64,000 nt of DNA from Desulfobacula sp. Its GTDB lineage: Bacteria; Desulfobacterota; Desulfobacteria; Desulfobacterales; Desulfobacteraceae. The notes below the pieces were generated by a model that was given only the letters and a program-made list of their open reading frames with translations, did not search any database and had not been told where the DNA came from. Shown piece by piece: positions 10,095 to 28,307 of this stretch; the stretch's first letter is position 1; every line of letters starts with the position of its first letter. Position numbers and translations under genes: made by a program. The stretch lies in contig VMSR01000302.1 of the NCBI GenBank assembly GCA_013792075.1, positions 75 through 64,074 on the forward strand, in the 5' to 3' direction.

Positions 10095-10179
10095 GGTGTT
10101 TTCTCTCTTTCATTCTTGATGGTGCGGTTCACGTACCGATATGATTGATGCGAATTTTTTGTACAAAAAGTAAATAGGA

Positions 10180-10961: not shown

Positions 10962-10990
10962 CGTTTGCTCCTTCGTTTGAGCGGTTTTTA

Positions 10991-11140: not shown

Positions 11141-11194
11141 GGTTTTTCCCTTATCGATTGTATAATTATGGTTCACAAATTATGTATTATATAG

Positions 11195-11210
11195 TTCAAT
11201 TTACGTGCCA
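11195..11210 (-). promoter_or_regulatory. sigma-54-type -24/-12 promoter-like element upstream of lmo0937-ytxH-DUF948-BON
   Basis: The minus strand reads TGGCACGTAAATTGAA. It is identical to the element at 35344-35359 and lies about 55 nt upstream of the ATG at 11140. Confidence 0.55.
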
Positions 11211-11300
11211 GGTTTTCAATATCCGGCTTATGATGCCACCCTGCTTATCTGCAGGGGTCTTCTGCATAAAAAGACCTTCAAGCAGCTGCCGGAGAAAGCA

Positions 11301-11341
11301 GGTAGAATAAGGTCATATATAACCTTCGGCCATATGTGACC
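11301..11341. promoter_or_regulatory. candidate UAS: GGTAGAAT-N2-GGTCATAT-N9-GGCCATATGTGACC
   Basis: Located 91-131 bp upstream of the -24/-12 element at 11195-11210. Conserved in the duplicated copy at 35449-35489. Confidence 0.55.
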
Positions 11342-11435
11342 TGCTTTGTCAGGGTCGTTGGTTATCAGACTTGCACAGGTGAGCGTGATGCTCCCAGGAC
11401 CCGTGATTGAAGTGCCTGGAGGGTTAATGTTATTT

Positions 11436-11962: not shown

Positions 11963-12052
11963 TATAACCCTTATATATCGTGAATCCATAAGGGTTATTG
12001 TTAAAGGTTACCTGTATCAGGCGGTGTTTTTTTCCCGTTGGGGAGTATAATT

Positions 12053-13183
12053 ATGGCCGGCATTGAGATCATTACCGTGGAAGGGGGATCTAAATTAAGA
12101 GACTTCATAGATCTGCCCTGGAAGATCTATGTCCCGTATCCCAAATGGGTTCCTCCGCTCAAAAAAGAAGTCCGTCGGCTGCTGGACCCCCTTAAGCATC
12201 CTTTCTGGGAGTTTTCCGAGCGCATTCTTTTCCTGGCACGGCGGGGTAAAAAGACGGTAGGAAGGATTGCGGGCATCATAGATGACCATTATAACCAGTT
12301 CCATAACGAAAAGATGGGTATCTGGGGATTTTTTGAATGTGCGGATGATCCGGAAGCCGCGGCAGCTCTTTTTTCTTCCGTGGAGGGGTGGATTCACAAC
12401 AAGGGAATGACCTTTATAAGAGGTCCTCTCAACCCGTCCACCAATCACGAGGCCGGTTTGCTAATTGAGGGTTTCGATTATCCGCCCTCCTTGATGATGC
12501 CCTATAACCCGCCTTACTATTCACGGCTGATCGAATCTTGCGGTTATGTCAAAGAAAAAGATCTGCTCTCTTTTCTTATGGACAGCGATTACAAGCTTCC
12601 CGGGTGGATGGATAATCTTGCCGGCAAGATCGCCAAAAAAAAGGGGGTCCGCATCACCCACTTTGACCCAAAGAATGCAGACGCTGAGTTTGCGCTGATC
12701 CGGCAGATATATAACGATGCCTGGTCCGATAACTGGGGGTTTGTTCCTTTGAGCGAGAATGAGATGCAGGACATAGGCAAGGACATGATGGAATTTGTAG
12801 ATCCGGACATGGCGTTTTTCATCTATCATGAGGATGAGCCCGCAGCCTTCTGCCTGATCTTTCCCGACATCAATCCCTTGCTCAAGCGTTTCAACGGGCG
12901 GGTCGGACTGCTGGGGGTGTTGAAGTATTTCCTGTACAAAAAGGAGATTAAAGGATTGCGGTTGCTTATGTTTGGGATCAAGGAGAAATACCGGCAACTG
13001 GGGTTTCCCCTGCTGGCCTTCCACCATATCTATGAAGTTGTGAGGAAAAAAGAGAAATATCAGTATATGGAAATGGGCTGGACACTGGAGGACAATGAGG
13101 CGATCAACGAATTGATAGAGGAAGCCGGTGCAAAAAAATACAAAAAATATCGCATATTCAAAAAAGTTTTTATCATAAATTAA
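12053..13183 (+). CDS. GNAT-like N-acyltransferase superfamily protein (function unknown)
   Basis: The ATG at 12053 is 8 nt after GGGGAG. The N-terminal pattern LRDFIDLPWKIYVPYPKWVPPLKKEV...FLARRGKKTVGRIAGII recalls a widespread family of roughly 380-aa proteins annotated as GNAT acetyltransferases. This is a recognition-level call only. Confidence 0.55.
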   Translation: MAGIEIITVEGGSKLRDFIDLPWKIYVPYPKWVPPLKKEVRRLLDPLKHPFWEFSERILFLARRGKKTVGRIAGIIDDHYNQFHNEKMGIWGFFECADDPEAAAALFSSVEGWIHNKGMTFIRGPLNPSTNHEAGLLIEGFDYPPSLMMPYNPPYYSRLIESCGYVKEKDLLSFLMDSDYKLPGWMDNLAGKIAKKKGVRITHFDPKNADAEFALIRQIYNDAWSDNWGFVPLSENEMQDIGKDMMEFVDPDMAFFIYHEDEPAAFCLIFPDINPLLKRFNGRVGLLGVLKYFLYKKEIKGLRLLMFGIKEKYRQLGFPLLAFHHIYEVVRKKEKYQYMEMGWTLEDNEAINELIEEAGAKKYKKYRIFKKVFIIN

Positions 13184-13214
13184 ACGTATGGCTTAAAAGC
13201 AAAAGGATTTTAAC

Positions 13215-16200
13215 ATGTCGGCTGAGCATCAAAATTCCATTATCGGTTTTATCTGGCGGCCTGAGGAGATCACCCCGGCGGTGGTTCAGATGGTTCAGCG
13301 AACAGGGAGCCATGCTGTCTTCGATTTTTCCATGATAAAGGGAGCAGACGATCTGTATTCCTGCCTGCGGGAAACAGACCCTGATGATCTTGTCAGGGAT
13401 ATTAAAATTTCCGCCACGGCCTTTACGGATCCGTCTCTGGTTCGGGTATTAAAGAAAACAGGGGTCCACGCCCTCTGGGTAGAGTGCCCCCTTGAGGTTT
13501 CTGACGGAGATACCTCCTTGTTTATAGAAAAGCTTAAGGAAATTTCCAAAAGTTATTGCTGCTTTCCCATCACCGGGGACACCGATCTTGTGGCAAAAAT
13601 ATTAAAGGATGACCCGGGCATCGGGCGAATCGTTCTGAAAGGATGTGAGGCCGCAGGATTCGTGGGCCGTGAGACGACCATGGCGCTCTATTCAATGGCC
13701 AGAGAAATGCTCAGGGCTTCTTCAACGCCTTGTGATATTCTCATCTGGGGCGGTGTCTTTATCCCTGAGGCAGCAGCGGCATTTCTGTCAACCGGGGCGG
13801 CCGGGATCATCTTTGAGAGTGTCCATTGGTTGACCGATGGGGTTAAAATTGAAGATTCCCAGCGAGAGTGTCTCCGCCGGATCCATCCGGATTCCACTGA
13901 TCTGGTCGGCCTGGACGTGCAGGTTCCCTGCCGTCTGTTCAACAAGGGAAATTCCCTCGCATTCAAGGAAATCAAGGCTTACGAGGACTCGCTCTGCGGT
14001 GCAACGATCCTGGCCCAAGACCGCCACGGTTTTGCAAACCGGGTGAATGCTAAGGCCGTTCACCCCCTGAAGAGCCTTTTTAGCCGGGACGAAGTCATTT
14101 TTCTGGGTGTGGAAGCGGCTTTTGCCGAGTCCTTTATTAACCGTTTTGGAACCCAGACCGAGGAAGCGGTGCGAGCGTTCATGGACGAAATTCATGGGTT
14201 ATGCAACCTGGCCGAAGAAAAAAAGAAGTGTTTTCTGGACAGTCCTGTGGCCAAAGAGATGGGAATCCTATACCCCTTTATTCAGGGCGCCATGTCCTGG
14301 ATCACGGATGTTCCTGAGTTTGCCCTGGGGGTCGCCGATGCCGGTGGATTGCCCACCATCGCCCTTGGCCTGATGGACGCTGAAATGCTTGACAAAAAGC
14401 TTGGATGTCTGCCGAAGATCATGGGCGAGCGCCCATATGCCGTGAATGTGGTCGCTTTGGCGGAAAATCCTTTCAGGGGATTGCATCTGGCCTGGATAAA
14501 AAAGCATAGACCCCGTTTTGCAGTGATTGCAGGCGGTGATGTTTCCGTCATCGGTGAATTGATGGAAAGCGGCATTGATGTCATTTATATCGCTCCGGAT
14601 GAAGCACTATTGAAGCTCGCCCTCAAAGCAGGCGTCCGATATGTGATCTGCGAGGGGTATGAGGCCGGGGGCCATGTGGGACCGCATAGCACGCTTACCC
14701 TTGCACAAATGGTGCTGGATCTGAAACAATCCACCCCATCCCTGTTCAAAAACTGTCGCATAATCCTTGCCGGGGGAATTTTTAACCGGGAAACCGCGTT
14801 TATGGCAGCCATGCTCGGAGCCGACGCCATCCAGATGGGTACCGCCTATCTGGCCACACGGGAAATTGTTGACACAGGCGCCTTGGCACCCCTTTATCAG
14901 CAGATGATCCTGAAATCACTTCCGGCAGGAACCGTTGTTTCCGGCCGGAACACCGGCCTTAGGGTAAGGTCCCTGAGAACCCCGGTGGTGGAAGTTATGT
15001 TATCCCTGGAAAGGGAGTTTGCCGCAGGACACCGGGACGAGACCTCTTTCAGGGTGAGTATGGAAAAAATGGCGGCCGGAAGCCTTTTCACTGCTGCAAG
15101 GGGTATGGACAGGCCGGGAGAGGCACTTCTAGATGAAAAAACCTGTCTGGAACGCGGACAATTCATGAGCGGGGCATGTGCCGGGCTCATCCGTGACGTC
15201 GATAATCTGAAGTCCTTTCACCGTGAACTGGTCCAGGGCCCTCTTCATATGCATCAGCCGGTTGCAGGCGCCTTGGAAACACCATTGAAAATACCGGTCG
15301 CTGGGGTCAAAAATACACTGAATCAAGTCATACCCAAAAGAGAGAATCATGACAGAATTGCCATCACCGGCATGAGCATCGTTAATACCCTGGGGGAAAG
15401 CCCGGAAGAAGTCTGGGCTGCAAGCCTGGCCATGAAGAGCGGAATCACTCTGGTTCCGCCGTCACGGTGGGATCATGCCCTGTATTATGACGCCCGTCCC
15501 CATACTCCAGACAAGACGTATTGCAAAGTGGGGGCTTTTCTGGACTTTCGTGTCGACCGCAATGAACTTAACATTCCTCCCCATGATTTCAGGAGTATGA
15601 CCGAGGCCACACGGATTTCCATGTGGCTTGCGGACAGGGCCATCCGGGAATCCGGTATTCTGACATCGGACATCCCGCGGGAGAGAATAGCCGTCCTCAT
15701 GTCCCAGAATTCGGGAGAAGCGGCAGGGACGCTTCCCAATATTATTATCAGGGCATACGTTAACGACATCCTGGCCGGAATCAAACAGGCCGTTGACCTC
15801 ACACCGGGTCAACACAGAGCCATCGAACAGGAAATAAAATCCGGGCGTATGGCCCCGGACGATACCACCCTGTTGGGCCGGCTCAACTGCGCTGCCGCCG
15901 GTTTTATCTGCAAACAGTATGGGTTCATGGGGCCGAGCTATGCTGTATCCGCAGCCTGCGCAACCTCACTTGTAGCACTTCACTGCGCCATCCAGATGAT
16001 CCAAAACGGCATCATAGACGCAGCCGTCGTGGGAGGGGGCGAGGATACGCTCAGCCATCTGCATTTTCTGGAATTTTCCGCCCTGGACGCACTTTACGGG
16101 TTGTCCGGGCAGGAAAAATCTGCCCATGAGACCTCTTGCCCTTTTGATGCACAAAGAGACGGGATGGTCCTTGGCGAAGGCGGGGCAATGATTGTTATTG

Positions 16201-19200
16201 AGCGGGAAAGCCTTGCCCGGGCAAGAGGGGCCCTTGTTCATGCCTTTGTGACCGGCATGGGCGCCAGCAATAACCATCTGGGGATGGTGGAGTCTTCCAA
16301 TGTCTCCCAGCAGATGGCCATTCGCGCCTCTTTTAAGGGAACATCCTATGGACCGGATGCCGTGGATCTTGTGGAATGCCATGCCACGAGCACCCGCCAG
16401 GGAGACCTGGAGGAGGTCCGTGCCCTGAAGGCGATCTTTCCTTCCTCCAAGCGCACCGTGCTCAGTGCATTTAAATCCCAGATCGGACACACACTGGGTG
16501 CCTCGGGTATCAGTAGCCTTATTCGGGGGGTGAAGGCCATGAAGGCTAAAATTTTACCGCTCACCCTTAATTACAGTCATCCGGACCCGGAAATCAATCT
16601 GGAAAAATCAGGTCTTATCATCTCCCCTGCGCCGCTGGATTGGAAAAGCCGCACCGGGGAACCCAGAAGGCTTGAAGTCAATGCGTTTGGTTTTGGCGGT
16701 TCCAATTATGTGGTCCAGGTGGAACAATCTATGGATGAAGTGGATATGGTCATGGTTTCCCATAAACCGCAAACGGTATCGGCCCATGAAGATTTGAAAG
16801 TTGTGCCCCTTGCCCTTGTCTTCCCCGGACAGGGGGCACAGTATGGCGGTATGGGACAAGAACTCTATGCGTCTTTTCCCATTATTAAAGAATGGATGGA
16901 TCGGGCTGCAGCCGTTGCAGACTTTGATCTCCTTGGCCTGATGTTCCATGATCAAGAGGAAAATCTTCAGAAGACCCGATGGCAGCAGCCTGCCATGTTT
17001 GCCATGGAAAATGCCATGGCCCGATATCTCATCAGCCTCGGCATCCGCCCGGTGGCCATGGCCGGTCACAGTCTGGGCGAATTGACTGCCTTGTGTCTGG
17101 CCGGTGTCTATTCCCCGGAGGATGGGTTTCGAATCGTGAACAAGCGGGCCCTGTGCATGGACAAAGCCGCTTCCGAGAATATCGATCCCGGTGTCATGGC
17201 AGCCACGGACGCGCCTCTGGATCTGCTGAAAAAAATGATCCAGGATTGCAATGATATCCACATCGGTAATATCAATTCACCCAAGCAGATTGTTTTAAGC
17301 GGCAATACACAAGAGATGAGGGATTTTAGCAAAAAATTGAAGGAACAGGGTCACCGGACCACCCTTCTGCGTGTCAGCATGGCCTTCCACTCTCCTGCCA
17401 TGAAGGTCATCCATGATGAACTTGCAGCATACATTGCCGCCATTGAATTTCATTCCCCGCAGATTCCGGTCATCTCCAACACGACCCAGATACCGTATCC
17501 GTCAGACCCTGATGAGATCAAAAAAATCCTCATGGCCCACCTGGAATCCCCCGTCCATTGGATGGATAATGTCCAGAGTCTTTGGAATACCTATGGGGCA
17601 AGGCTTTTTGTTGAGGTGGGACCGGGTGACGTATTGAGCAATCTCATCGCAGACACGCTTCCCGGATCAGCGTGTATCCAGACATGCCTTCGGTCCTCAG
17701 AGGGGTTGACCTTCAAGGCTGCCCTTGCCCAGCTCTTTGCCCAAGGGCAGCTTAAAGTTAAAGGAGAACCAAAGGGTATTCTTCTTCCTGCACTCAAAAA
17801 AACTCAGGAACCTCTTCGGATCATACCGGCATTGGCCTTACGGCCGCAAACATCCCTGCATCCGGATGAAAATCCCATGGAACAGATCATTCAAAGGGAA
17901 ATCAACCGGTTCGTCATGGAGAATTCCGGCCAGTTTCTTAAGTCCAACATTTTGGAAGCCATCCGCCATGAACTGAACCCGAAATTCAAAGAAGGCGACC
18001 TGTCAAGTGTTATCAAATCCATGTTCGGAGGGTTTGAGCCTCCTGAAGGATTGAAACTGCTTGCTCCTGTATCTGTTGAACCATCCGGCCCTGCTGCTGG
18101 GGGTGAAGATATCATGGAGAAACTTATTCGAATTATTATGGATGCGACCGGATATAATAGAGACGAGATCCAGCCCGACATGGATCTTCGGAAGGACCTT
18201 TCCATTCGATCCAGCCGTCTGCCCATCATCATGGATGCAGCAGAACACCAATTCGGGATCACCATTGAACTGGAGGATTTTATAGATGTCCGTACCGTGA
18301 ATGACATTGCCCTGGGGATCTCCAAAATAACTGCCCGGCAGGAAAACAACAGACGGCAAGAGTCCTCAGAGGCACTTGACCCGGACACCCTGCCAGATGA
18401 ACACCTGAAATCCTCAACAGATGCGGCAAGCTTAAATCGGCTCGTATTCGCGGATGCCGCAATAGAGTTGGGCGCTTTAATCCCCATGGAATTGAGTCCG
18501 GGCGAATCCGTCCTTTTTCTCTCTTCTGACCAGGATGACAAGATTGCCCAACGCACAGGGGACATTCTCAGGACAGACTACCGGGTTAAGACGTTTCCAA
18601 TGGGAGTCCTGCAGGAAAGCCTGGATTCCGGCAAAACGGGTCACGACATCCGAACCGAAAAAGGGGCCTTGCAGGCTGCAGATAAAATTGCAACCCTGCT
18701 TCCTGTTTCCGGGATGGTCATCACCCTTGGTCAGGACGGGCCGATAATATCAAGCAGCATGGCGGATGTTTCCCAGCTCCTTAAGGGATTCTTTGTCCTG
18801 CTTAAGGCATTTCTTGAATCACCGGCTAAAAAATTTATCCTGTTGATTCATTCCGGAGAGGATATTGAAACGCCTGTCCGGTTGCTGACCCAAGGAATGC
18901 TCGGATTATTCTTAAGCGCGGCCCAGGAATACCCATCCATCCAGTTTAGAACACTGGCAATCGAGAAAGATACCGATCTTCAAAAAGCCGTGCACAATGC
19001 TCTGGATAGAGGTTGTAAACTAGTGGAGATGATTCATCAAGATGGAAAGCTTCTCACGTCAGAGGGAGGTTTAGCCCCATCGATTTTCAGGGATTCATCA
19101 GGTCTGAACCTGAATCCTGGGAGTGTTATCGTGATGTCCGGGGGCGCAACCGGGATCAGCGCCTATCTTGCCCGCGGTCTTGCTCCTTTCATGCCACGTC

Positions 19201-20888
19201 TTGTCTTTCTGGGGAGGACGCGTCTCGATCTGAAAGGTGACCCGGCAAAACCGCTTGCCGGTCCTTCATTTTCAGCGTCGGCAGCCATCGGGCCCAGGGC
19301 AGGGGAGATTGCCCAGACCCTGGCGGATTTACACGCAGCAGGAATTGAGGCGACCTATCATACCTGCGATGTTACCGATCCTGAAGCCGTCCAGGCCATC
19401 CTGGGAGAAGTGATCGGCCGTTACGGCAAAATTGACGGGATCATTCACAGTGCCGGTGTCCTCAGGGACGGTCCCTTAAGCCGCATGACCCTGGATGATT
19501 TTTCCATGGTCACGGACGTCAAATTTCTGGGCGCCTGGAACCTCTACTCAGCGGCCAAGACTGCCGGCTTGAAGTTTTTTGCAGGCCTTTCCTCAGTCGC
19601 TGCAATCCAGGGGAGTCCCGGACAGGCAAATTATGTTGCCGCCAACCGGATGATGTCTGCCTTGCTCAGACATCTGAGCCTGAAAAACAGCACCATCCGC
19701 TTCAAGGCCTTGATGCTTCCTCCTGTTGAGGGAGCCGGCATGGCGGATGATCCGGAAATCCAGGCCCTGCTCAAGCAAAAAGGGGTTGCATATATTCATG
19801 TGAATGAGCTTGCAGGACTCATCTGCCGGGAACTTTTTGTCGCCCCGGCCGACGACAATTGGGTCATGTTCATGAAAAAACTGCCGTGTGTGAGGACGGT
19901 ATTGCTTAACGACAAAACCCGTCCCTTACCTTGCGGAGAGCTGGATTCCGGTCTTGTGTCCTTCAAACCTGAGGACTTTCCCATGATCGAAAAGATTTTA
20001 ACCCTGGACCTTTGTCAGGAAAAACTGGAAGCCTTCCGGTCTTTTTCTCTGGAAAAGGATCTCTGGATCACGGATCACAGGCCCTTCAAGTTCATCAAGC
20101 ATCCCATTGTCTCAGCCACCATGGTTCTGGAGACATTCATGGAAGCTGCCCGGATACTGTATCCCCACCTTCAGGTGCGGGGCGTTCGCAAGATCCGGCT
20201 CATGGACATGATTGAATGCCGGCCGGGGGTTCCGCGGCCGGCCAGCATCTCCTGCCGCAGGGCCGACAACAGCCTTGAAGCGGTATTGTGCGATATGTCC
20301 CTGTCAGCACAGGAGATTTCTCCGGCCGGGAGATTGACCGACCACTTTGCCCTGCAGTGCAGCGGTCAGGTGATCCTTGATGGCGGAGGAGAAACGCCCA
20401 AGAAGGGATTCCTGGATTTTCCCATCCGGCAGGACGAACTCAGGACCCGGCCCATGAATCGCAAAAAAGTATTGAAATGGTACAAAGACCGCAGCGGTCT
20501 GGGAGGACGGTATCGCGTCATAGAGTTTCTTGATGGTACGGGTCCGGGTGTCATACGGGGCCGGACGATTTATCCTGAGACATGTGACTTTGCAAATCTT
20601 TTGAACGTAAAATACCAATACTCCCCCTACCTTTTCGAGGCGCTTTTGCAATTGGTGTGCTGTCACATTGCTGTGACAGATCCATCAGAGCCCAGATCCA
20701 TGATTCCCCTGGAGATCGGGGAGATGCGGTGTTTCAGAAAAGTCCGGGCAGGAGAAAAGATAACGCTGGAGGCCAGATTGCGAACACAGGACGACGAAGT
20801 GCTCACCTGGGACACAAGGGGACTTGATGATCAGGGCGAAACCCTCATGCAGATTTTCGGGTTGCAGATGAAATGGATTTCAGATTGA
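13215..20888 (+). CDS. type I FAS/PKS-like megasynthase: degenerate ER-like + FabK/PfaD-type ER + KS + AT + ACP + KR + DH
   Basis: 2557-aa ORF. ER (about 14240-15200): ILYPFIQGAMSWITD, ICEGYEAGGHVG, ILAGGIF..GADAIQMGTAYLAT. Degenerate N-terminal copy (13215 to about 14200): LKGCEAAGFVG, ILIWGGVF. KS (about 15351-16730): SAACATSL (Cys 15957-15959), CHATSTRQGD, SQIGHTLGASG. AT (about 16810-17700): FPGQGAQYGGMG, GHSLGE (Ser 17070-17072), MAFHS. ACP (about 18105-18330): DLSIRSSRLPIIM. KR (about 18900-19800): SGGATGISAYLARGL, GQANYVAAN. DH hotdog (about 19960-20885): ITDHRPFKFIKHP. No thioesterase or reductase release domain. Confidence 0.9.
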   Translation: MSAEHQNSIIGFIWRPEEITPAVVQMVQRTGSHAVFDFSMIKGADDLYSCLRETDPDDLVRDIKISATAFTDPSLVRVLKKTGVHALWVECPLEVSDGDTSLFIEKLKEISKSYCCFPITGDTDLVAKILKDDPGIGRIVLKGCEAAGFVGRETTMALYSMAREMLRASSTPCDILIWGGVFIPEAAAAFLSTGAAGIIFESVHWLTDGVKIEDSQRECLRRIHPDSTDLVGLDVQVPCRLFNKGNSLAFKEIKAYEDSLCGATILAQDRHGFANRVNAKAVHPLKSLFSRDEVIFLGVEAAFAESFINRFGTQTEEAVRAFMDEIHGLCNLAEEKKKCFLDSPVAKEMGILYPFIQGAMSWITDVPEFALGVADAGGLPTIALGLMDAEMLDKKLGCLPKIMGERPYAVNVVALAENPFRGLHLAWIKKHRPRFAVIAGGDVSVIGELMESGIDVIYIAPDEALLKLALKAGVRYVICEGYEAGGHVGPHSTLTLAQMVLDLKQSTPSLFKNCRIILAGGIFNRETAFMAAMLGADAIQMGTAYLATREIVDTGALAPLYQQMILKSLPAGTVVSGRNTGLRVRSLRTPVVEVMLSLEREFAAGHRDETSFRVSMEKMAAGSLFTAARGMDRPGEALLDEKTCLERGQFMSGACAGLIRDVDNLKSFHRELVQGPLHMHQPVAGALETPLKIPVAGVKNTLNQVIPKRENHDRIAITGMSIVNTLGESPEEVWAASLAMKSGITLVPPSRWDHALYYDARPHTPDKTYCKVGAFLDFRVDRNELNIPPHDFRSMTEATRISMWLADRAIRESGILTSDIPRERIAVLMSQNSGEAAGTLPNIIIRAYVNDILAGIKQAVDLTPGQHRAIEQEIKSGRMAPDDTTLLGRLNCAAAGFICKQYGFMGPSYAVSAACATSLVALHCAIQMIQNGIIDAAVVGGGEDTLSHLHFLEFSALDALYGLSGQEKSAHETSCPFDAQRDGMVLGEGGAMIVIERESLARARGALVHAFVTGMGASNNHLGMVESSNVSQQMAIRASFKGTSYGPDAVDLVECHATSTRQGDLEEVRALKAIFPSSKRTVLSAFKSQIGHTLGASGISSLIRGVKAMKAKILPLTLNYSHPDPEINLEKSGLIISPAPLDWKSRTGEPRRLEVNAFGFGGSNYVVQVEQSMDEVDMVMVSHKPQTVSAHEDLKVVPLALVFPGQGAQYGGMGQELYASFPIIKEWMDRAAAVADFDLLGLMFHDQEENLQKTRWQQPAMFAMENAMARYLISLGIRPVAMAGHSLGELTALCLAGVYSPEDGFRIVNKRALCMDKAASENIDPGVMAATDAPLDLLKKMIQDCNDIHIGNINSPKQIVLSGNTQEMRDFSKKLKEQGHRTTLLRVSMAFHSPAMKVIHDELAAYIAAIEFHSPQIPVISNTTQIPYPSDPDEIKKILMAHLESPVHWMDNVQSLWNTYGARLFVEVGPGDVLSNLIADTLPGSACIQTCLRSSEGLTFKAALAQLFAQGQLKVKGEPKGILLPALKKTQEPLRIIPALALRPQTSLHPDENPMEQIIQREINRFVMENSGQFLKSNILEAIRHELNPKFKEGDLSSVIKSMFGGFEPPEGLKLLAPVSVEPSGPAAGGEDIMEKLIRIIMDATGYNRDEIQPDMDLRKDLSIRSSRLPIIMDAAEHQFGITIELEDFIDVRTVNDIALGISKITARQENNRRQESSEALDPDTLPDEHLKSSTDAASLNRLVFADAAIELGALIPMELSPGESVLFLSSDQDDKIAQRTGDILRTDYRVKTFPMGVLQESLDSGKTGHDIRTEKGALQAADKIATLLPVSGMVITLGQDGPIISSSMADVSQLLKGFFVLLKAFLESPAKKFILLIHSGEDIETPVRLLTQGMLGLFLSAAQEYPSIQFRTLAIEKDTDLQKAVHNALDRGCKLVEMIHQDGKLLTSEGGLAPSIFRDSSGLNLNPGSVIVMSGGATGISAYLARGLAPFMPRLVFLGRTRLDLKGDPAKPLAGPSFSASAAIGPRAGEIAQTLADLHAAGIEATYHTCDVTDPEAVQAILGEVIGRYGKIDGIIHSAGVLRDGPLSRMTLDDFSMVTDVKFLGAWNLYSAAKTAGLKFFAGLSSVAAIQGSPGQANYVAANRMMSALLRHLSLKNSTIRFKALMLPPVEGAGMADDPEIQALLKQKGVAYIHVNELAGLICRELFVAPADDNWVMFMKKLPCVRTVLLNDKTRPLPCGELDSGLVSFKPEDFPMIEKILTLDLCQEKLEAFRSFSLEKDLWITDHRPFKFIKHPIVSATMVLETFMEAARILYPHLQVRGVRKIRLMDMIECRPGVPRPASISCRRADNSLEAVLCDMSLSAQEISPAGRLTDHFALQCSGQVILDGGGETPKKGFLDFPIRQDELRTRPMNRKKVLKWYKDRSGLGGRYRVIEFLDGTGPGVIRGRTIYPETCDFANLLNVKYQYSPYLFEALLQLVCCHIAVTDPSEPRSMIPLEIGEMRCFRKVRAGEKITLEARLRTQDDEVLTWDTRGLDDQGETLMQIFGLQMKWISD

Positions 20889-20936
20889 TCATGAAGCGGT
20901 CCGGCAGATGGCTGATCAAAATAGACAGGAGCGGAT

Positions 20937-21746
20937 ATGGTGAGGCAGAATCAAGAAATTTTTGTTCAGACAATAAATTTTTTTCATGGAAAAGGTCCTG
21001 TCTTCTATGCATCACTGCCCTGCGGGTCAGGCCAAAGACATCATCTGGTCTCAGGGCTGTGGGATCACCTTGTTGCTGTTAAAACTCCGGTTTGGATGGG
21101 AAGGCCAGATATCAGCAAAGAGGCTTTCCCCATCCGGATCATCCGGGGCCCCCTTGGCAAACCTCAACTCCTCCTTGGAGGACATCGAGGTCCGGCAGTC
21201 TCTTTTTGCGAGAGCGGCCAGAACGTCTGGGCGGCTCTGTGTGGAGATGAGCATGATATCGGCATTGATGTGGCGCAACCCCATGAATTCCAAGGCAAAT
21301 ACCCTTTTAACCGGGTGTTTCACCCATCAGAACTTCAGCACGCTGTAAAACTGTTGGGCGAGGATTTAAAAAAAGCGGCAGCCTTGCTCTGGTCTATCAA
21401 GGAAGCGGTTGCAAAGGCCTTGGGATGTGCATTTCATCTTGTGGACCCGCGGCAGATGGTGGTGTATCCGTCAATATCTAGTAGCGCCACAGGGCGAGCG
21501 GCAACGGAAAGCTATGTATATGATTTTCCGGTGGGGTTATCACAAAAGGCCGTCATGCGGTTTCCCATGGCTGCGGGCCGGGCCTTACGGGTACGTTCGG
21601 TTTTTCATGAAAAAATGTGGCTTTCCATTGCCCTGTTGAATTGGCAGCAACGTTTGAATGACGGGGCAGATGACGGGAAAAGCAGGTTTGTTACCCACAG
21701 ATACAGTCCAAAATACAGCCAAAAAATACAGATTGGAGCGTTATGA
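20937..21746 (+). CDS. 4'-phosphopantetheinyl transferase (Sfp-type)
   Basis: 269-aa ORF after AGGAG. Motifs: DIGIDVAQPHEF (GxD metal site) and LWSIKEAVAKALG (W/FxxKEAxxK). Confidence 0.8.
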   Translation: MVRQNQEIFVQTINFFHGKGPVFYASLPCGSGQRHHLVSGLWDHLVAVKTPVWMGRPDISKEAFPIRIIRGPLGKPQLLLGGHRGPAVSFCESGQNVWAALCGDEHDIGIDVAQPHEFQGKYPFNRVFHPSELQHAVKLLGEDLKKAAALLWSIKEAVAKALGCAFHLVDPRQMVVYPSISSSATGRAATESYVYDFPVGLSQKAVMRFPMAAGRALRVRSVFHEKMWLSIALLNWQQRLNDGADDGKSRFVTHRYSPKYSQKIQIGAL

Positions 21747-22696
21747 CCCAAAACCCTGAATATGCAATTGAAGTTACCAACCTGACCCGTCGCTACAAGG
21801 GGTTTGCTGCAGTTGACGACATATCGTTTACCGTCAGGAAAGGTGAGGTCTTTGCCCTGCTGGGCCCCAATGGTGCAGGCAAGACCACGACCGTCGAGAT
21901 CATCAATACCATCAGAAAACCCACATCCGGCAAAGTGACCCTTCTTGGAATGGACGTCACCCAAAAAAAGTATAAAATCATCCCCCGCATTGGCGTCCTT
22001 CCGCAAGGGTTCAGCACCTTTGACCGGATAACGGTTAAAGAAACCCTGCAGTATTACTCCCGGCTTTTTTGCAACCCGAACACCGATATCAATGGGCTGA
22101 TAGCGCTTGTGAATCTCCAGGACAAGGTCAAGGTACAATACAGGAACCTCTCTGGAGGATTGAAACAGCGCCTTGGAATCGCTGTTGCGCTGGTGAACGA
22201 CCCCGAAGTTGTGTTCCTGGACGAGCCCACGACCGGGCTTGACCCCCGGGCCCGGCGGGAGGTGTGGAAAGTTCTGCTGGGCCTTAAAAAAAAAGGGAAG
22301 ACCCTATTTCTTACCACACACTACATGGAGGAAGCAGAACTTCTTGCAGACACGGTGGCCATTGTCGCAAAAGGGAAGATCACGGCCATGGGATCTCCGG
22401 GAGAACTCATCGAAAACAATGCCAATTACCTGGTCGCCATGCTGAAGTCTGTGGATGAAAATGTTTTTGAAATCGTCAGAAACATGGGGCTTGCGCCGGC
22501 CTATGACAGCCAGGGACACATCAAGGTCAGGCTTACGCACACGGAAGATGTCCGAAGGCTGCTCAACACGGTCAAGGACAGCGGGGCGTCGTTTGCCGGA
22601 CTGGACGTCCGCAAGCCCAATCTGGAAGAGGTCTTCCTGAAACTTACCGATGAACCACTTGCGCAAGGCTTTGTCCGTATAAAGGGGGCAGAATGA
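21743..22696 (+). CDS. ABC transporter ATP-binding protein
   Basis: Walker A GPNGAGKTT, signature LSGGLKQR, Walker B VVFLDEPTTGLD. ATGA overlap with the PPTase stop. Confidence 0.9.
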   Translation: MTQNPEYAIEVTNLTRRYKGFAAVDDISFTVRKGEVFALLGPNGAGKTTTVEIINTIRKPTSGKVTLLGMDVTQKKYKIIPRIGVLPQGFSTFDRITVKETLQYYSRLFCNPNTDINGLIALVNLQDKVKVQYRNLSGGLKQRLGIAVALVNDPEVVFLDEPTTGLDPRARREVWKVLLGLKKKGKTLFLTTHYMEEAELLADTVAIVAKGKITAMGSPGELIENNANYLVAMLKSVDENVFEIVRNMGLAPAYDSQGHIKVRLTHTEDVRRLLNTVKDSGASFAGLDVRKPNLEEVFLKLTDEPLAQGFVRIKGAE

Positions 22697-23826
22697 AGCT
22701 GCACATCCTCCATGCAAACATCATTTATGCCAATATCATCGTGAGCATCAAGAGCTTCTACCGCGAGAAAACGGTGGTATTTTTCAGGCTTGCCTTCCCG
22801 GTCATCCTGATACTCGTTTTTGGCACCATTTTCATGGAAAGAGACAATGAAATTTTTGACCTAAGCATTCAGGACCTGGACCGGACACCCTCATCCGAAC
22901 AACTCGTGGAAGCGATTCGTCTCAGCAAAAGATTCACCATCACAAAGGTCTCTCCTGCTGTTGATGCAAAAACCTATGCCAAGACCCATAAGCGCAATCT
23001 GATTGTCATTATTCCCAAAGACTTTGAAATGTCCATGATGCAGAAAATGGAATCCGATACCTTTGGCACACCCGTCAGCCTCAACCAGTTATACGACCCC
23101 AGCGCCTTTGGGGTGACGACCAAACTAGGGGTGCTGGACATGGTGCTGGCCGGGATAAACCAGGAAATGTCCGGTAAACCGCCGCTCATTGTATCGGAAC
23201 CCATATCCATACTTAAAAAGAAATATCGGTTTATCGAGTTTTTTGTCCCCGGGATCATTGCCATGGCAGTGATGACGGCAAGCCTGTTCGGTGCGGTGAA
23301 CGTCAATGCCGAACTCCGGCAGAAAGGCGTCATCAGAAAGCTTTTCACCACCCCCATTACCCGGATTGACTGGATTCTGTCAAACGTCCTGTACCAGTTC
23401 ATTCTTGCGGTTCTGTCCACAGCGGTGATGTTGCTGGTGAGCTATGTCGTGTTCAGTGTTAGTCTTGAGATAAATGCCTGGCTTGTGGTGTTTATTGCCC
23501 TTGACGTTTTTTCATTTGTCGGGCTCGGCATGATTCTCACCCGCGTTGCCAAGGAGGCTGAAAGTGCTTCGGCCGCGGCCGATGCCCTGATGTTTCCCAT
23601 GATGTTCCTCTCAGGAACATTCTTCCCTGTGGAGATGATGCCTGAATTTCTGCAGAAGTTTGCCAGGGTTCTGCCGCTGTATTATGTGAACGAGGGACTC
23701 AGGGCCGCCATGGTATCCGTGGATCACGCAGCTGCCCTGAAATGTGCCCTGACCATCGGGGCGTTTGCCGCTGTGGTGTTTGTTCTCGGCAGCATGATAA
23801 CCACATTGGGCGGAGAGAGCACATGA
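22693..23826 (+). CDS. ABC-2 type transporter permease
   Basis: 377-aa ORF with an N-terminal TM helix, a large extracytoplasmic loop, then 5 C-terminal TM helices. ATGA overlap with the ATPase gene. Confidence 0.8.
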   Translation: MKLHILHANIIYANIIVSIKSFYREKTVVFFRLAFPVILILVFGTIFMERDNEIFDLSIQDLDRTPSSEQLVEAIRLSKRFTITKVSPAVDAKTYAKTHKRNLIVIIPKDFEMSMMQKMESDTFGTPVSLNQLYDPSAFGVTTKLGVLDMVLAGINQEMSGKPPLIVSEPISILKKKYRFIEFFVPGIIAMAVMTASLFGAVNVNAELRQKGVIRKLFTTPITRIDWILSNVLYQFILAVLSTAVMLLVSYVVFSVSLEINAWLVVFIALDVFSFVGLGMILTRVAKEAESASAAADALMFPMMFLSGTFFPVEMMPEFLQKFARVLPLYYVNEGLRAAMVSVDHAAALKCALTIGAFAAVVFVLGSMITTLGGEST

Positions 23827-24765
23827 TTTTCAATGCACGGGACAAGATCACCCGGGGGCTGTTGTCATTGGCCGGGCCTTTGCCCCTTAATCTCTACTAC
23901 CGGCACCATTTTCCATTGCCCTCGGTCATCTTGATCGAGAACACAAACTGCTGCAACGCGCGCTGTGTGATGTGCCCCCGTGAGAAGCTGACCCGAAAAC
24001 CAGGCTTTATGGCCTTTGAAGTGTTCGAGAAAATTATCAGAGATGTATCCGGCGCCAGACGAAAACCTGTCGTGCATCTGCACGGGTTTGGAGAGCCGCT
24101 GCTGGATGAGGTGCTGCCCGACCGGATCAAACTTGCAAAGGCCTTTGGCATAAAGCATACCTATCTGGTTACCAATGCGTCGCTATTATTTCCCGAGACC
24201 GCCAGAAAGATTATTGGTGCTGGGCTGGACAGGATGAAAATCAGTTTTTACGGCACGGATGATGAATCCTATTGCCGCACCATGAGAGGGCTGGATTTCA
24301 AGGTGGCGTTGAACAACGTCAGGGAATTTGTAAAAATAAGAAAGGAAATGAAAAAAAAAGACGCCGAAACTGATCCTTCAATACCTGCCTCAAACGACCA
24401 ATGGTGCTGCGACAAAAGAATTCAAATCCCTGTGGCGCTCTGTTCTGGATAAGCGGATGGGTGACTGCCTGAATATTAGTTCTCCGGACAATTTTGGCGG
24501 CGGAAGGGCTTACAATTCTGTTGAAAAAAAAATAGTGTCTGTCTGTTTTTATCCCTGGTCAGCCCTGTCCGTGCTCTGTGACGGCAAGGCCGTGACCTGC
24601 TGCATGGATTACAATGGCGTTCAGGAAGTGGGGGATGTGAACTTGCACAGTGTCAAGGAAATCTGGAACGGGCCTGTAATGTCCGACATCAGAAAAAACT
24701 TCGGCAGGCTTGACTATGGCGGATTTCCAGCCTGTCAGTGCTGTGACTGGGTACACAGGGGATAA
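23823..24765 (+). pseudogene. radical SAM / SPASM-like protein interrupted by a +1 frame change at an A9 run (two ORF fragments: 23823-24452 and 24457-24765)
   Basis: The ATG at 23823 overlaps the permease stop. The CNARCVMC (CxxxCxxC) cluster and GFGEPLLD are in fragment 1. The Cys-rich C-terminal part (CFYPWSALSVLCDGKAVTCCMDYNG...CQCCDW) is in fragment 2. Removing one A from the run at 24351-24359 gives a continuous reading: ..EMKKKTPKLILQYLPQTTNGAATKEFKSLWRSVLDKRMGDCLNISSPDNFGG.. Confidence 0.75.
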
Positions 24766-24778
24766 GGGGAGGCGGCAG

Positions 24779-25747
24779 ATGAAAAAAAAGATATTCTTTA
24801 TATGCGGCTCCATGAATCAGACCACCCAGATGCATCAGATTGCAGGACACCTTGGCGATTATGACCACGCGTTCTCACCCTTCTACGTCCACGGATTTGA
24901 CGCGTTTCTCAAAAAGGTCGGAATGATCGAATTCACCATTGCCGGAAACAAACTGGCCAACCGTTGCCGGGACTATCTTCAGGACCAGGGTCTGCCCATG
25001 GACGAAAAAGGTCGCAATCGACCCTACGACCTGGTGGTGACCTGCTCGGATGTGTATTTGCAGAAGAACATCAGGGGAGATCGGATGGTGCTGGTTCAGG
25101 AAGGGATTACAGACCCGGAATCTTTCATGTTCCATCTTGTCAACCGGTTCCGATTCCTTCCGCTCTGGTTTGCGGGCAATGCATTGACCGGTCTCAGTGA
25201 TGCATATGAGGTGTTCTGTGTTGCAAGCGAAGGGTATCGGGACTTTTTCATAAAAAAAGGTGTGCGTGCCGAGAAGATTGTTGTTACGGGGATACCCAAT
25301 TTCGACAATTGCCGGCAATATGCCGGCAACACCTTTCCCTACAAGAATTATGTGCTGGCCTGTACGTCTGCGCTGAGGGAGACCCTCCAGTTCGAAAACC
25401 GCAAGGCTTTTATCCGAAAAGCTGTTGAGATCGCAGGTCCACGGCAGCTTATCTTCAAGCTTCACCCGAGCGAAAAAGTTAGGCGTGCCACCCGGGAAAT
25501 AAACACGTATGCCCCCGGGGCCATGGTGTTTTCCACCGGTAACGCAGAAGAAATGATCGCAAACTGTGATGTTCTGATTACCCGGTTTTCTTCGACAGCC
25601 CTTGTCGGCCTTGCCCTGGGCAAGGAAACCCACTCAGACTTCAATATGGAAGAAATGCGTCGATTGACGCCTATACAGAACGGTTCGGCGGCCCTGAACA
25701 TTGCCAGTGTCTGCCGCCGGCTTCTTGAAAGTGAGGATTTATGTTAA
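24779..25747 (+). CDS. GT-B-fold glycosyltransferase-like protein (GT28/MGDG-synthase-like; tentative)
   Basis: The ATG at 24779 follows GGGGAGG. N-terminal KKIFFICGSMNQTTQMHQIA and C-terminal MIANCDVLITRFSSTALVGLALGKE resemble the two Rossmann halves of GT-B enzymes. The family is not firmly recognised. Confidence 0.45.
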   Translation: MKKKIFFICGSMNQTTQMHQIAGHLGDYDHAFSPFYVHGFDAFLKKVGMIEFTIAGNKLANRCRDYLQDQGLPMDEKGRNRPYDLVVTCSDVYLQKNIRGDRMVLVQEGITDPESFMFHLVNRFRFLPLWFAGNALTGLSDAYEVFCVASEGYRDFFIKKGVRAEKIVVTGIPNFDNCRQYAGNTFPYKNYVLACTSALRETLQFENRKAFIRKAVEIAGPRQLIFKLHPSEKVRRATREINTYAPGAMVFSTGNAEEMIANCDVLITRFSSTALVGLALGKETHSDFNMEEMRRLTPIQNGSAALNIASVCRRLLESEDLC

Positions 25748-26997
25748 GTCAATTCATTGATATTGCAAGTCAAAAAATACGCGCCAAGCGAATGGAATAT
25801 TTTGGAAAGCACCCGGATGTCTATACAAAAATAGTTGCATATACCCGGTCAAATCTGGTAAGGGCGTTGGGATATTATCCGTATTATCCGAAAATTGAAA
25901 AATCCAATGCCACTGAAGTGACCATTGACGGACGGCAGATAACCATGCTGGGGTCTAATAATTATCTTGGACTTACCAATCACCCCAAAGTGATTGAAGC
26001 AGGGGTCAAAGCGTTACAAGAATATGGGTCTGGATTGACCGGCAGCCGTTTGCTGAACGGAAATGTCCTCCTGCATGATCAATTGGAAGAAGACCTGGCT
26101 GATTTTGTTCACATGGAAAACGCGTTGGTGTTTTCCACTGGATTTGGTACAAATTTAGGAACCATCTCTACAATCTGTGGTCCCGATGATTTGATTTTCA
26201 GTGATGAATATAACCATGCTTCCATTGTAGACGGTATCCGTTTTTCCGGTGCACGAAAATGTAAATACAAACACAACGACATGCAGGATCTGGAAGAAAA
26301 ACTGGCTTTTGCAGATCCCAAATACCCCCGGTTCATTGTTACCGACGGCGTCTTCAGTATGGAAGGAGATATTGCCAAATTGGATGAATTGACGGCCTTA
26401 TCTAAAAAATATTCGTCACGCCTGATGGTGGATGATGCACATTCTATTGGAATTTTAGGTCCCCATGGCGAAGGAACTGCTGCACATTTTGGTGTCACGG
26501 AGGACATGGACCTGATTATGGGGACCTTCAGCAAATCCCTGGGGTGTGTCGGCGGATTTATTGCCGGTGAAAAAATGGTCATCGAATATTTAAAGCATCA
26601 TTGCCGAACCATGATCTTTACGGCATCCCTGCCGCCTTCCAATGTGGCCTCTGTGACGGCTGCCTTAGAAATTATCAAGGCAGAACCGGAACGCCGTGAA
26701 CGTGTGATGGAAAATGCCCAATTTATGCGGAATGGGTTAAAATCATTGGGATTTGATATCGGTGAAAGCACCACCCCGATCATTCCCATTGTTATCGGTA
26801 AAGATCTCAAAACCTTTCAGGTATGGAAAGACTTAATGGACGCGGGTGTTTACACAAATCCCATCATTTCACCGGCGGTCCCTCAAGGCAGAGCCCTGTT
26901 GCGTACCAGCTACATGGCAACCCATACGCGCAAACAATTGGAATTTTGTCTTGATATGTTTGAAAAAGTCGGCAGAAAAGCCCGCATTATCGGCTAA
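25741..26997 (+). CDS. PLP-dependent alpha-oxoamine synthase (serine palmitoyltransferase / 8-amino-7-oxononanoate synthase family)
   Basis: 418-aa ORF. Motifs: GSNNYLGLTNHP, GSGLTGSRLLNGN, MVDDAHSIGILGPHGEG, GTFSKSLGCVGGFIAG (PLP lysine). The start overlaps the upstream stop. Confidence 0.9.
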   Translation: MLSQFIDIASQKIRAKRMEYFGKHPDVYTKIVAYTRSNLVRALGYYPYYPKIEKSNATEVTIDGRQITMLGSNNYLGLTNHPKVIEAGVKALQEYGSGLTGSRLLNGNVLLHDQLEEDLADFVHMENALVFSTGFGTNLGTISTICGPDDLIFSDEYNHASIVDGIRFSGARKCKYKHNDMQDLEEKLAFADPKYPRFIVTDGVFSMEGDIAKLDELTALSKKYSSRLMVDDAHSIGILGPHGEGTAAHFGVTEDMDLIMGTFSKSLGCVGGFIAGEKMVIEYLKHHCRTMIFTASLPPSNVASVTAALEIIKAEPERRERVMENAQFMRNGLKSLGFDIGESTTPIIPIVIGKDLKTFQVWKDLMDAGVYTNPIISPAVPQGRALLRTSYMATHTRKQLEFCLDMFEKVGRKARIIG

Positions 26998-27053
26998 AAA
27001 AGGAAAGACTGTGAAACATAAGCCTGTATCATCCCAGACGTGTGACCGTTAGA

Positions 27054-28250
27054 TCACATGTGTCCGGAATCCTTGCCCGAAGCATACCCCGTCATTCCTG
27101 TCATGAACCGGACCAAGCCATAGCATAGCCAACTAACCATGCGCAGAAGAATGGGCTGGACTTTCCAGCTATTGGGTTGGATCTGATGTGCCCCGGCAGC
27201 AATAGACTTCTCCAGGCTGTATTTCAAGGTTCCGGCAAAATTTTTATCATCAACAACAACATTCGCCTCAAGTGCCAGCATCAGGCTGAACGGGTCAAGA
27301 TTCGAGGAGCCTACCGTGGACCATTGTTCATCGATCACAGCAACTTTGGCGTGCATGAGGCTCTTGTGATATTCATGGATTTGAATCCCGGCTTCCAGAA
27401 AACTGCCGTACAGGGCTTTCGAGGCATAATACAATAATCGATATTCCATCTTTCCCTGCAGGAGTAAAACCACCCTGACACCCCGCCCGGCCGCGTCCAT
27501 AAGCGCACGACGAAACTTTGATCCGGGGAAAAAATAGGCATTTGCTATGATGATTTCCAATTGTGACTGTTCAATCGCCTGCAGATAGGCACCTTCGATA
27601 TCACGTCGATGCCGGATATTATTGCGCACCAGAAAAGCTGCGCGCATGCTGCCCCTGGATTCGGGAAAAAAAGCTTGTCGGTCTTTGTCCCGGCCCCAGG
27701 GACTAAAACGGGTCCAGGTACTAAAACGGGACCAGGTCACCCGCGACCACAACCGACGGGTGGACGCGAGAATATCTCTGACCAGCGGCCCTTCCACATG
27801 TACAGCGTAGTCATACCGAGACGAGGTTTGATCCGGGAGATCAAAATCATCGACAATATTAATGCCTCCAACGAATGCAGATCTCTGATCTACAATCACA
27901 ATTTTTCGGTGCAATCGACGCAACCGCCGGCGCTGAAGTGTCCAGGGCGATATCTTGGGCCGGAACTTCATCAGCATCACACCGGCTGTATTAAGGGAAA
28001 CGGCCATGGTTTCCGGCAGATTGTCCGAACCGAATCCATCGATCAGCACGCGGGTCTTCACACCGCGCAACGCTGCCCGCCTGAGGGCTTCTGCAATACG
28101 TTGTCCGATGGTATCATTTTTAAAAATATAGCTTATCAGATAAATCTCATGCTCCGCCCTGTCCAACGCCGCTTCCATGACCGGGAAGTAGGTTTCGCCA
28201 TTCTGCAGCAGTGTGATCTGATTGTTAGGAACAAACCGGGTCCCAGCCAT
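27054..28250 (-). CDS. phospholipase D-family protein / cardiolipin synthase ClsB-like
   Basis: Two HKD motifs: LHRKIVIVDQRSAFVGGINI and MHAKVAVIDEQWSTVGSSNLD. The ATG at 28250 follows AAGGA. Confidence 0.85.
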   Translation of the reverse strand: MAGTRFVPNNQITLLQNGETYFPVMEAALDRAEHEIYLISYIFKNDTIGQRIAEALRRAALRGVKTRVLIDGFGSDNLPETMAVSLNTAGVMLMKFRPKISPWTLQRRRLRRLHRKIVIVDQRSAFVGGINIVDDFDLPDQTSSRYDYAVHVEGPLVRDILASTRRLWSRVTWSRFSTWTRFSPWGRDKDRQAFFPESRGSMRAAFLVRNNIRHRRDIEGAYLQAIEQSQLEIIIANAYFFPGSKFRRALMDAAGRGVRVVLLLQGKMEYRLLYYASKALYGSFLEAGIQIHEYHKSLMHAKVAVIDEQWSTVGSSNLDPFSLMLALEANVVVDDKNFAGTLKYSLEKSIAAGAHQIQPNSWKVQPILLRMVSWLCYGLVRFMTGMTGYASGKDSGHM

Positions 28251-28307
28251 TTTATCCTTTTTACCCACCAAAGGCCCTCATATGTTTTTCCATTTTTCAT
28301 ATACTCA

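Follow-up and report, generated by a model that had tools for sequence, protein, structure and literature searches.

A 64,000-nt stretch of Desulfobacula sp. DNA (contig VMSR01000302.1 of assembly GCA_013792075.1; hereafter the window, with positions counted from its first letter) carries on its plus strand, at 12053-26997, an operon that joins a one-module megasynthase related to fatty acid and polyketide synthases with a serine palmitoyltransferase (SPT)-like alpha-oxoamine synthase (AOS). This pairing and the domain content of the synthase are directly observed. Judging from the encoded proteins and their relatives, the operon of this Desulfobacteraceae-type host may serve the synthesis and export of a sphingolipid-type (ceramide-like) lipid, with the product of the first gene, p1, off-loading the megasynthase, a reading to which we assign a probability of about 0.5. 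Its broader component, a sphingolipid-type pathway, is well supported. The genes form a tight same-strand run with ATGA overlaps at 21743, 22693 and 23823, a 7-nt overlap at 25741 and gaps of 13-48 nt elsewhere, which reproduces the open reading frames (ORFs), spacing and gene order given in an earlier note on this DNA. That note counted eight same-strand genes; their order stands, whereas the radical SAM/SPASM gene is split by a frameshift in the window and the stub of a reductase gene after the AOS gene had been overlooked. The arrangement is clearly not accidental, its gene order being shared by dozens of genomes; a scan for promoters and terminators gave matches at chance level only.

By sequence, the AOS is SPT-like and nearest to the CFB-type serine palmitoyltransferases. 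Among NCBIfam models, SerpalmtaseCFB gave the highest score (509.5 bits, below its cutoff of 640), followed by bioF (414.7; cutoff 426), Kbl (408; cutoff 460) and the CqsA-type model (240 bits), with ALAS also behind. The ranking against PDB sequences was similar, led by the SPT of Sphingobacterium multivorum (3a2b/8guh, 398 bits) and that of S. paucimobilis (305), ahead of Kbl (289), cysteate acyltransferase (CFAT, 265), BioF (230) and ALAS (216 bits), and the earlier placement of the enzyme with SPT rather than with BioF or Kbl is thereby borne out. The residues that hold pyridoxal phosphate (PLP) and L-serine in S. multivorum SPT were taken from its structure (PMC10196870). In the alignment, K265, H159, D231, H234 and T262 of the window AOS correspond to K244, H138, D210, H213 and T241 of that enzyme, and S264, N73, G101, S102 and S206 to S243, N52, G80, S81 and S185; A212 is also kept, and the one exception is M271I, a backbone contact. 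These residues are largely common to AOS enzymes in general and do not by themselves prove serine specificity.

A reductase gene of the kind expected in sphingoid-base synthesis accompanies the AOS in relatives of the window. A short-chain dehydrogenase/reductase (SDR) of the 3-ketodihydrosphingosine reductase (KDSR) type, whose best NCBIfam model is KDhSphingRedKdsR (323 bits, below the cutoff of 400), is encoded directly after the AOS in nine related loci and in Marinimicrobia. The remnant of this gene in the window matches, at 94% nucleotide identity, the start of the SDR gene that follows the AOS in a related locus (L002); it takes up the final 44 nt of the AOS gene plus 36 nt beyond, and its start codon has changed from ATG to ATA. 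As the homology breaks off at 27033, just before a ClsB-type gene, a deletion or replacement took out the reductase gene.

The protein p1 has no Pfam or NCBIfam match by itself. Its homologues show sub-threshold matches to Acetyltransf_1 (11 of 24) and Acetyltransf_6 (8 of 24), and more distant members of the family exceed the Pfam thresholds. A profile search of 1.84 billion representative proteins returned 9063 relatives; only three of these score above 500 bits, and they were taken as the synthase-linked orthogroup. Among the more distant relatives, two clusters of fusion proteins, found on at least five contigs, begin with an SPT-like AOS (52% identity to the AOS of the window; SerpalmtaseCFB 539 and 470 bits) and end in a domain resembling p1 (33% identity over 356 aa, E 1e-75), and in one further protein a p1-like domain is joined to a fatty acyl-AMP ligase (FAAL). 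A scan of metagenome contigs for the p1 family, with 16 sequences sharing the motif MPYNPPYY as the query, returned 80 loci, all without the synthase. A same-strand SPT-like AOS was present in 49 of them (43 of the 63 with enough upstream sequence), lying directly upstream of the p1-family gene in 46 of the 49 at a median gap of 52 nt, often with an epimerase-type reductase before it. Reductase, Spt and acyltransferase, in this order, make up the genes for ceramide synthesis in bacteria (PMC11087976, PMC11324152). Because the family is fused to, or encoded directly after, SPT-like AOS enzymes, p1 was read as ceramide-synthase-like, and it is plausibly an N-acyltransferase of this kind that moved next to a megasynthase, in line with the earlier proposal that the first gene encodes a GNAT-like and possibly ceramide-synthase-type protein. 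In synthase loci that carry a type 2 or type 3 AOS module (described below), the sole p1-family gene is the one beside the synthase. Fusions across the p1 family (P0482, P0461, P0508, P0438, P0498) involve SPT-like AOS, fatty acyl-AMP ligase and PilZ, the last giving a hint of c-di-GMP control of some members.

Searches of the encoded proteins against Pfam, NCBIfam and PDB uphold the ER-KS-AT-ACP-KR-DH order first described for the megasynthase, and they detected no thioesterase (TE) or reductive release (R) domain in it and nothing after the DH domain. The first 345 residues gave no Pfam or PDB match; over 135 aa they are 28% identical to the ER domain that follows, with EAGGH changed to EAAGF and the histidine thus gone. 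This degenerate N-terminal ER-like domain is kept in all synthase homologues. The DH motifs are variant, the first reading HxxxKxxxxP and the second having E where D is usual. The NCBIfam model omega_3_PfaA matched the synthase partially (413 bits), and no PfaC-type KS-CLF or FabA-like dehydratase/isomerase was present among the domains or genes of the operon.

The distribution of the synthase was surveyed with its C-terminal 420 aa as the query against one genome per species; 177 species matched, and the best 80 of the 177 loci were read. These 80 loci span about eight phyla and come from Desulfobacterales, Syntrophales, Syntrophobacterales, Geobacterales, Desulfatiglandales and Nitrospirota/Thermodesulfovibrionales, as well as Verrucomicrobiota, Planctomycetota, Acidobacteriota, Aminicenantes and Binatia. 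They share, almost without exception, the gene order p1-synthase-PPTase-ABC-ABC2. The synthase is 64-93% identical across loci and is directly preceded by p1 in 50 of the 80 (identity mostly 70-90%, with two loci at 50% and 59%), and it is followed by the phosphopantetheinyl transferase (PPTase) gene in 76; the ABC ATPase gene is present in 71 loci and the ABC-2 permease gene (ABC2) in 69, whereas only some of the loci have the radical SAM gene and p8. The exact window proteins come from Desulfobacteraceae-like metagenome-assembled genomes (MAGs). Desulfamplus, Desulfobacula, Desulfotignum and Desulfobacterium have close homologues, and the cultured Desulfotignum phosphitoxidans carries the cluster. 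Outside Desulfobacteraceae, the recurring neighbours include a FemAB-like acyltransferase (30 loci), a protein of the EptA-like phosphoethanolamine transferase family (23), a B12 radical SAM protein (22) and a 281-aa protein without family; none of these four genes is in the window, and the 414-aa FemAB-like protein of other lineages has no detectable similarity to p1. Examples in one locus (L041) lie at 2406-3251, 12043-13287 and 15379-18531, with extra genes in 22-30 other loci. Head-group enzymes of the EptA-like and PAP2_3 kinds are found repeatedly in the wider surroundings of the core.

Conservation of the synthase and p1 at this level across phyla would also fit a housekeeping role, in which the megasynthase would be the main type I fatty acid synthase (FAS) of the cell, p1 would pass its chains to CoA or to general lipid precursors and the link to sphingolipids would be secondary. 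Such a core role was the speculation of Shulse and Allen for the 'Type S' synthase of D. autotrophicum, which is without fabA and fabZ (PMC3098273). We consider it very improbable. The conserved core includes a dedicated ABC-2 exporter and lies repeatedly among SPT, reductase, EptA-like and PAP2 genes, and the p1 family partners SPT genes in contexts that are free of the synthase. The core is also present in groups such as Geobacterales, and Geobacterales have type II FAS.

Sequence of 5 kb or more beyond ABC2 was available for 56 loci, 27 of which have an AOS gene, and this gene takes three non-orthologous forms. In type 1, found in Desulfobacteraceae, the gene follows p8 on the same strand and is itself followed by the KDSR-type SDR gene, the AOS being 79-92% identical to that of the window; a variant of this type has a convergent HpnA/OleD-like reductase. 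Type 2, found in Nitrospirota, Desulfatiglandales, ORM2a and others, is an opposite-strand KS-ACP-PAP2_3-AOS-epimerase-type reductase arrangement whose AOS is about 50% identical to the window enzyme (SerpalmtaseCFB 558 bits). In type 3, found in Syntrophobacteraceae and Desulfobulbaceae, a fusion of about 1180 aa with the order FAAL-ACP-AOS (34-37% identity) converges on ABC2, and an epimerase-type reductase is encoded upstream of p1. This fusion, seen in L060 (14287-17860, minus strand), L065, L068, L069, L076, L080 and L088, is a fused analogue of the AasR-AcpR-Spt trio. The occurrence of non-orthologous AOS types at one locus indicates that the supply of the long-chain base has been swapped between lineages, and in all three arrangements the AOS goes with a KDSR-type or CerR-like reductase. 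A neighbour-joining tree placed the window AOS beside stand-alone Spt-KDSR pairs of Marinimicrobia and Fidelibacterota and apart from type 2. The orthologues in these two groups are 72-79% identical to the window AOS, have the same length and a KDSR partner, and show no synthase nearby.

These patterns bear on how the chain would leave a synthase without TE. Off-loading by p1 is preferred because the synthase is constantly accompanied by p1 rather than by the AOS, because AOS enzymes of types 2 and 3 come with carrier proteins of their own, because orthologues of the window AOS occur without a synthase, and because the AOS module has been replaced non-orthologously. The earlier argument, which is not borne out, had run from the missing TE to off-loading by the AOS, in which case the synthase would build the backbone of the long-chain base, the AOS would release it from the synthase ACP by a decarboxylative Claisen condensation, and p1 would N-acylate the base with an ordinary acyl-CoA or acyl-ACP. 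This alternative appears rather unlikely to us, although it has several points in its favor. No TE or R domain is present, and in Desulfobacteraceae the AOS gene is the last of the operon, is translationally coupled and is accompanied by no separate ACP gene. In addition, the iterative polyketide synthase (PKS) SgaA and the SPT SgaB together produce long sphinganines in P. fluorescens (PMC12134224), and many bacterial Spt enzymes prefer acyl-ACP over acyl-CoA (PMC11324152). However, in most lineages the operon with this TE-less core (64-93% identity) contains no AOS, in others the AOS has its own ACP (and KS) or FAAL-ACP, and the 72-79% identical orthologues without a synthase have the same length as the window AOS, so that no docking specialization is visible.

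In the pathway proposed here, with p1 as the off-loading enzyme, the PPTase would activate the single ACP of an iterative, fully reducing megasynthase of the PfaA/FabK type, which would then make a saturated long acyl chain from malonyl units, its length and saturation being predicted from the domains. Separately, a 3-keto long-chain base would arise when the AOS joins an amino acid, probably serine or alanine, with an acyl-thioester drawn from the ordinary pool, and the KDSR-type reductase encoded after the AOS in relatives would reduce this base. By attaching the ACP-bound chain to the amino group of the base, p1 would free it from the synthase. A polar head group could then be attached by p8, the radical SAM/SPASM enzyme could modify the lipid in an unspecified way, and the ABC-2 pump would carry the product out of the inner membrane. 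Under this proposal, a megasynthase would hand its ACP-bound chain directly to a ceramide-synthase-like GNAT protein, so that release and ceramide N-acylation would be one step. That such a hand-over is a widespread and hitherto unrecognized route by which strictly anaerobic Desulfobacterota, Nitrospirota and others make exported sphingolipids with a synthase-made acyl chain is suggested tentatively, at somewhat below even odds; in that case the chain may reach a very great length or carry a modification introduced by the radical SAM enzyme.

Several observations weigh against this proposal. No gene for an ACP of the AOS's own lies in the operon, and p8 is translationally coupled to the AOS; as the earlier note proposed, the AOS could thus receive the chain directly from the ACP of the synthase, for which PfSgaAB offers a precedent. 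With the KDSR gene lost in this genome, no reductase is encoded within the window. The assignment of p1 draws on gene fusions and synteny. Aminoacyl-tRNA-dependent transferases, too, are found among proteins with tandem-GNAT and FemAB-like folds. Foldseek placed tandem-GNAT proteins at the top for p1 with TM-scores of 0.2-0.3 from a model of pLDDT 54, which gives a hint of the fold class only, and for p8 almost all of the top 50 matches listed were GT-B proteins, from an AlphaFold model of pLDDT 50 that likewise hints only at a fold class. The p1 and p8 models were built from shallow alignments in which all members are at least 73% identical. A comparison of the p1 profile with PDB sequences gave nothing useful, the best match being a GNAT at E = 0.017. 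Finally, no AOS was found within 10 kb in 29 of the 56 adequately flanked loci, and the core may in many lineages have an acceptor other than a sphingoid base.

The lack of an AOS in about half of these loci would also suit a different amino-lipid or a lipoamino acid, in which p1 would (amino)acylate another amine or a hydroxyl and the AOS would make an unrelated alpha-aminoketone, for instance a CAI-1-type signal. The scores of the AOS and the SDR, which lie under the NCBIfam equivalog cutoffs, and the tandem-GNAT fold, which is common to FemX and aminoacyl-PG synthases, are compatible with this as well. It is nevertheless improbable, as SPT models stand far ahead of the CqsA-type model (240 bits), BioF and Kbl, KDSR-type or CerR-like reductases accompany the AOS in every arrangement, and the PAP2_3 and EptA-like head-group genes fit phosphosphingolipids.

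Full-text literature searches found no paper describing this gene set, in agreement with the earlier note, which did not recognize it as a described pathway. The feeding of sphingolipid synthesis by a PKS is not a new idea, as it had already been demonstrated with PfSgaAB of Pseudomonas, reported in 2025 as the first source of PKS-derived sphingolipids (PMC12134224). The concept therefore has a precedent, and it is the present gene architecture that is undescribed. The PfSgaAB(C) system of P. fluorescens MYb115 resembles the operon in having a one-module iterative reducing megasynthase beside an SPT-type AOS, a KDSR-type reductase in the cluster and a product of the sphingolipid class. The synthase described here, however, is PfaA-like with a fused FabK-type ER (pseudoER-ER-KS-AT-ACP-KR-DH), and the operon adds a ceramide-synthase-like GNAT, a PPTase, an ABC-2 exporter, a radical SAM protein and a GT-B protein. 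The hosts are anaerobic Desulfobacterota, Nitrospirota and others instead of Pseudomonas and Burkholderia, and the synthase-made chain probably goes to the amide position and not to the base.

The 'Type S' cluster of D. autotrophicum HRM2 (PMC3098273), likened here by its description, very probably belongs to the same cluster family, with a Pfa-like FAS/PKS, an adjacent PPTase, a Desulfobacteraceae genome and an uncharacterized product. That work dealt with a single genome, did not mention the GNAT, exporter, SPT and KDSR partners, and proposed the core-FAS role. The Pfa synthases of polyunsaturated fatty acids (PfaABCDE) share the KS-AT-ACP-KR-DH order of PfaA, an ER like that of PfaD/FabK and an adjacent Sfp-type PPTase. 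In contrast to these, the operon has no PfaB or PfaC (KS-CLF, FabA-type DH/isomerase) and the synthase has a single ACP, and a polyunsaturated product is therefore not expected.

Similarities were also found with established sphingolipid pathways. With the Spt, AcpR, AasR, bCerS and CerR pathway of Caulobacter and Rhodobacteria (PMC11087976, PMC11324152), the cluster shares an SPT-type AOS and a putative soluble GNAT-type N-acyltransferase and, in type 2 and type 3 relatives, an epimerase-family reductase; relatives also have a dedicated ACP or FAAL-ACP fusion, and the predicted export to the outer membrane is a further likeness. It differs in having a megasynthase next to the N-acyltransferase, the likeness of p1 to bCerS being one of gene context. 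In place of CerR, the Spt of the window, which is of the CFB type, was paired with a reductase of the KDSR type that has since been lost. As regards the Spt and KDSR of Bacteroidota (BT_0870/BT_0972; PMC9278070), the CFB-type Spt and KdsR models are those that the window AOS and the SDR of its relatives fit best, and in Marinimicrobia the pair occurs alone; in the present cluster the scores are below cutoff (509 vs 640; 323 vs 400) and the pair is appended to the synthase operon.

Bacterial sphingolipids are far commoner than once thought, and producers and pathways in anoxic settings have been inferred only from Spt homologues. Metagenomic work has named Desulfobacterota and Marinisomatota as bearers of Spt-like genes and unusual ceramides (PMC11334938). 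In the cluster, sphingolipid enzymes and an exporter are linked with a highly conserved, uncharacterized 'secondary lipid' megasynthase. If the proposed pathway is correct, it would provide a function for the orphan 'Type S' synthase family, a new mode of chain release for a synthase without TE, and gene markers by which geochemists could follow a class of environmental ceramides; the hand-over to the GNAT could supply the unusual ceramides of anoxic waters and sediments. The possible hand-over from megasynthase to ceramide-synthase-like protein and the breadth of the core among anaerobes make the system worth experimental follow-up, and the model is directly testable since cultured carriers, Desulfotignum phosphitoxidans and Desulfobacterium autotrophicum, are available.

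Table 1. Genes of the operon, domains of the megasynthase and adjoining features, by position in the window.
Feature	Position	Strand	Evidence
p1, putative tandem-GNAT ceramide-synthase-like N-acyltransferase, 376 aa	12053-13183	+	Fusions and synteny with SPT-like AOS
Megasynthase, 2557 aa	13215-20888	+	Pfam, NCBIfam and PDB searches
Degenerate FabK-like (pseudo-ER) domain, aa 1-345	13215-14249	+	Aligned to adjacent ER domain
ER domain, FabK/PfaD type, aa 346-674	14250-15236	+	Pfam NMO; NCBIfam FabK 158.6 bits; PDB FabK 5gvh 105 bits
KS domain, aa 713-1120	15351-16574	+	Pfam ketoacyl-synt N and C; motifs AACATS (Cys), HATST (His), QIGH (His)
AT domain, aa 1202-1483	16818-17663	+	Pfam Acyl_transf_1; NCBIfam FabD 227 bits; GHSLG, MAFHS
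Single ACP domain, aa 1635-1699	18117-18311	+	Pfam PP-binding 26 bits; motif DLSIRSS
KR domain, aa 1972-2172	19128-19730	+	Pfam KR and adh_short; YxxxN motif, Tyr present
PKS-type DH domain, C-terminal, about aa 2270-2557	20022-20885	+	Pfam PS-DH, aa 2419-2554
Sfp-type PPTase	20937-21746	+	Pfam ACPS; 48 nt 3' of synthase
ABC transporter ATPase, DrrA/NodI-like	21743-22696	+	Pfam ABC_tran; NCBIfam drrA 254 bits
ABC-2 permease	22693-23826	+	Pfam ABC2_membrane_3
Radical SAM/SPASM gene, frameshifted	23823-24765	+	Radical_SAM in ORF 23823-24452, SPASM in ORF 24457-24765
p8, GT-B-fold protein, candidate head-group transferase, 322 aa	24779-25747	+	Weak Pfam matches and Foldseek
SPT-like AOS, 418 aa	25741-26997	+	NCBIfam, PDB, active-site residues
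Remnant of KDSR-type SDR gene, 27 codons	26954-27033	+	Nucleotide homology to L002
ClsB-type PLD gene, converging on the operon	27054-28271	-	NCBIfam NF008427

The frameshift in the radical SAM/SPASM gene lies in a run of nine A at 24350-24358, where one extra A puts the radical SAM and SPASM halves in different frames. The MAG contig JAHIIG010000305.1 (GCA_018899255.1) is 99.99% identical to the window over 21 kb, differing by that indel and one mismatch; it has a run of eight A and encodes an intact 313-aa radical SAM/SPASM protein. The frameshift may be a sequencing error or real variation. No NCBIfam equivalog was found for the protein, the best model, W_rSAM_matur, giving 101 bits where its cutoff is 380. 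A role as anaerobic sulfatase maturase for sulfatase-family neighbours was considered and rejected, as the two genes do not occur together in the loci. The product of p8 is 73-92% identical across phyla where present, and the gene sometimes lies upstream of p1; weak Epimerase_2 and Glyphos_transf matches in 26 of 26 homologues, together with the Foldseek result, accord with the earlier description of it as GT-B-like.

The gene that converges on the operon encodes a bona fide ClsB-type protein of the phospholipase D (PLD) family, with two PLD motifs and an NF008427 score of 366.5 bits against a cutoff of 281. It had been suggested that it might add head groups. In the 80 synthase loci read, the gene is not beside the cluster in other species, and the ClsB-AOS junction is confined to assemblies with identical proteins (L001, L091, L092), probably the same population. 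The gene fills the place of the deleted KDSR gene, and a part in the system as head-group enzyme was rejected since the association is not conserved. The accessory part of the operon is eroded in the window, and some other lineages are likewise losing its genes bit by bit: one Desulfotignum MAG (L015, 16150-16180) keeps the SDR gene with only 29 nt of the AOS gene left, and another (L021) is without the radical SAM gene.

The surroundings of the operon also showed some distinctive features. From 12000 to 34000, a region comprising the cluster and the genes after it, the G+C content is 0.49-0.54, as against 0.38-0.46 in the flanks. This 12-34 kb region is bracketed by paralogous blocks of BON-domain and DUF5670 stress genes, which are direct repeats of 81-86% identity located at 9357-10118 and 10985-11347 on one side and at about 34283-35029 and 35135-35495 on the other. 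Genes for BON, YtxH, CsbD, DUF3309 and OmpA-like proteins adjoin the cluster also in D. phosphitoxidans (L007) and in one further locus (L090). About 8.5 kb 3' of the operon, a gene of the LpxR family (lipid A 3'-O-deacylase; 35565-36611, minus strand) places an outer-membrane lipid function nearby.

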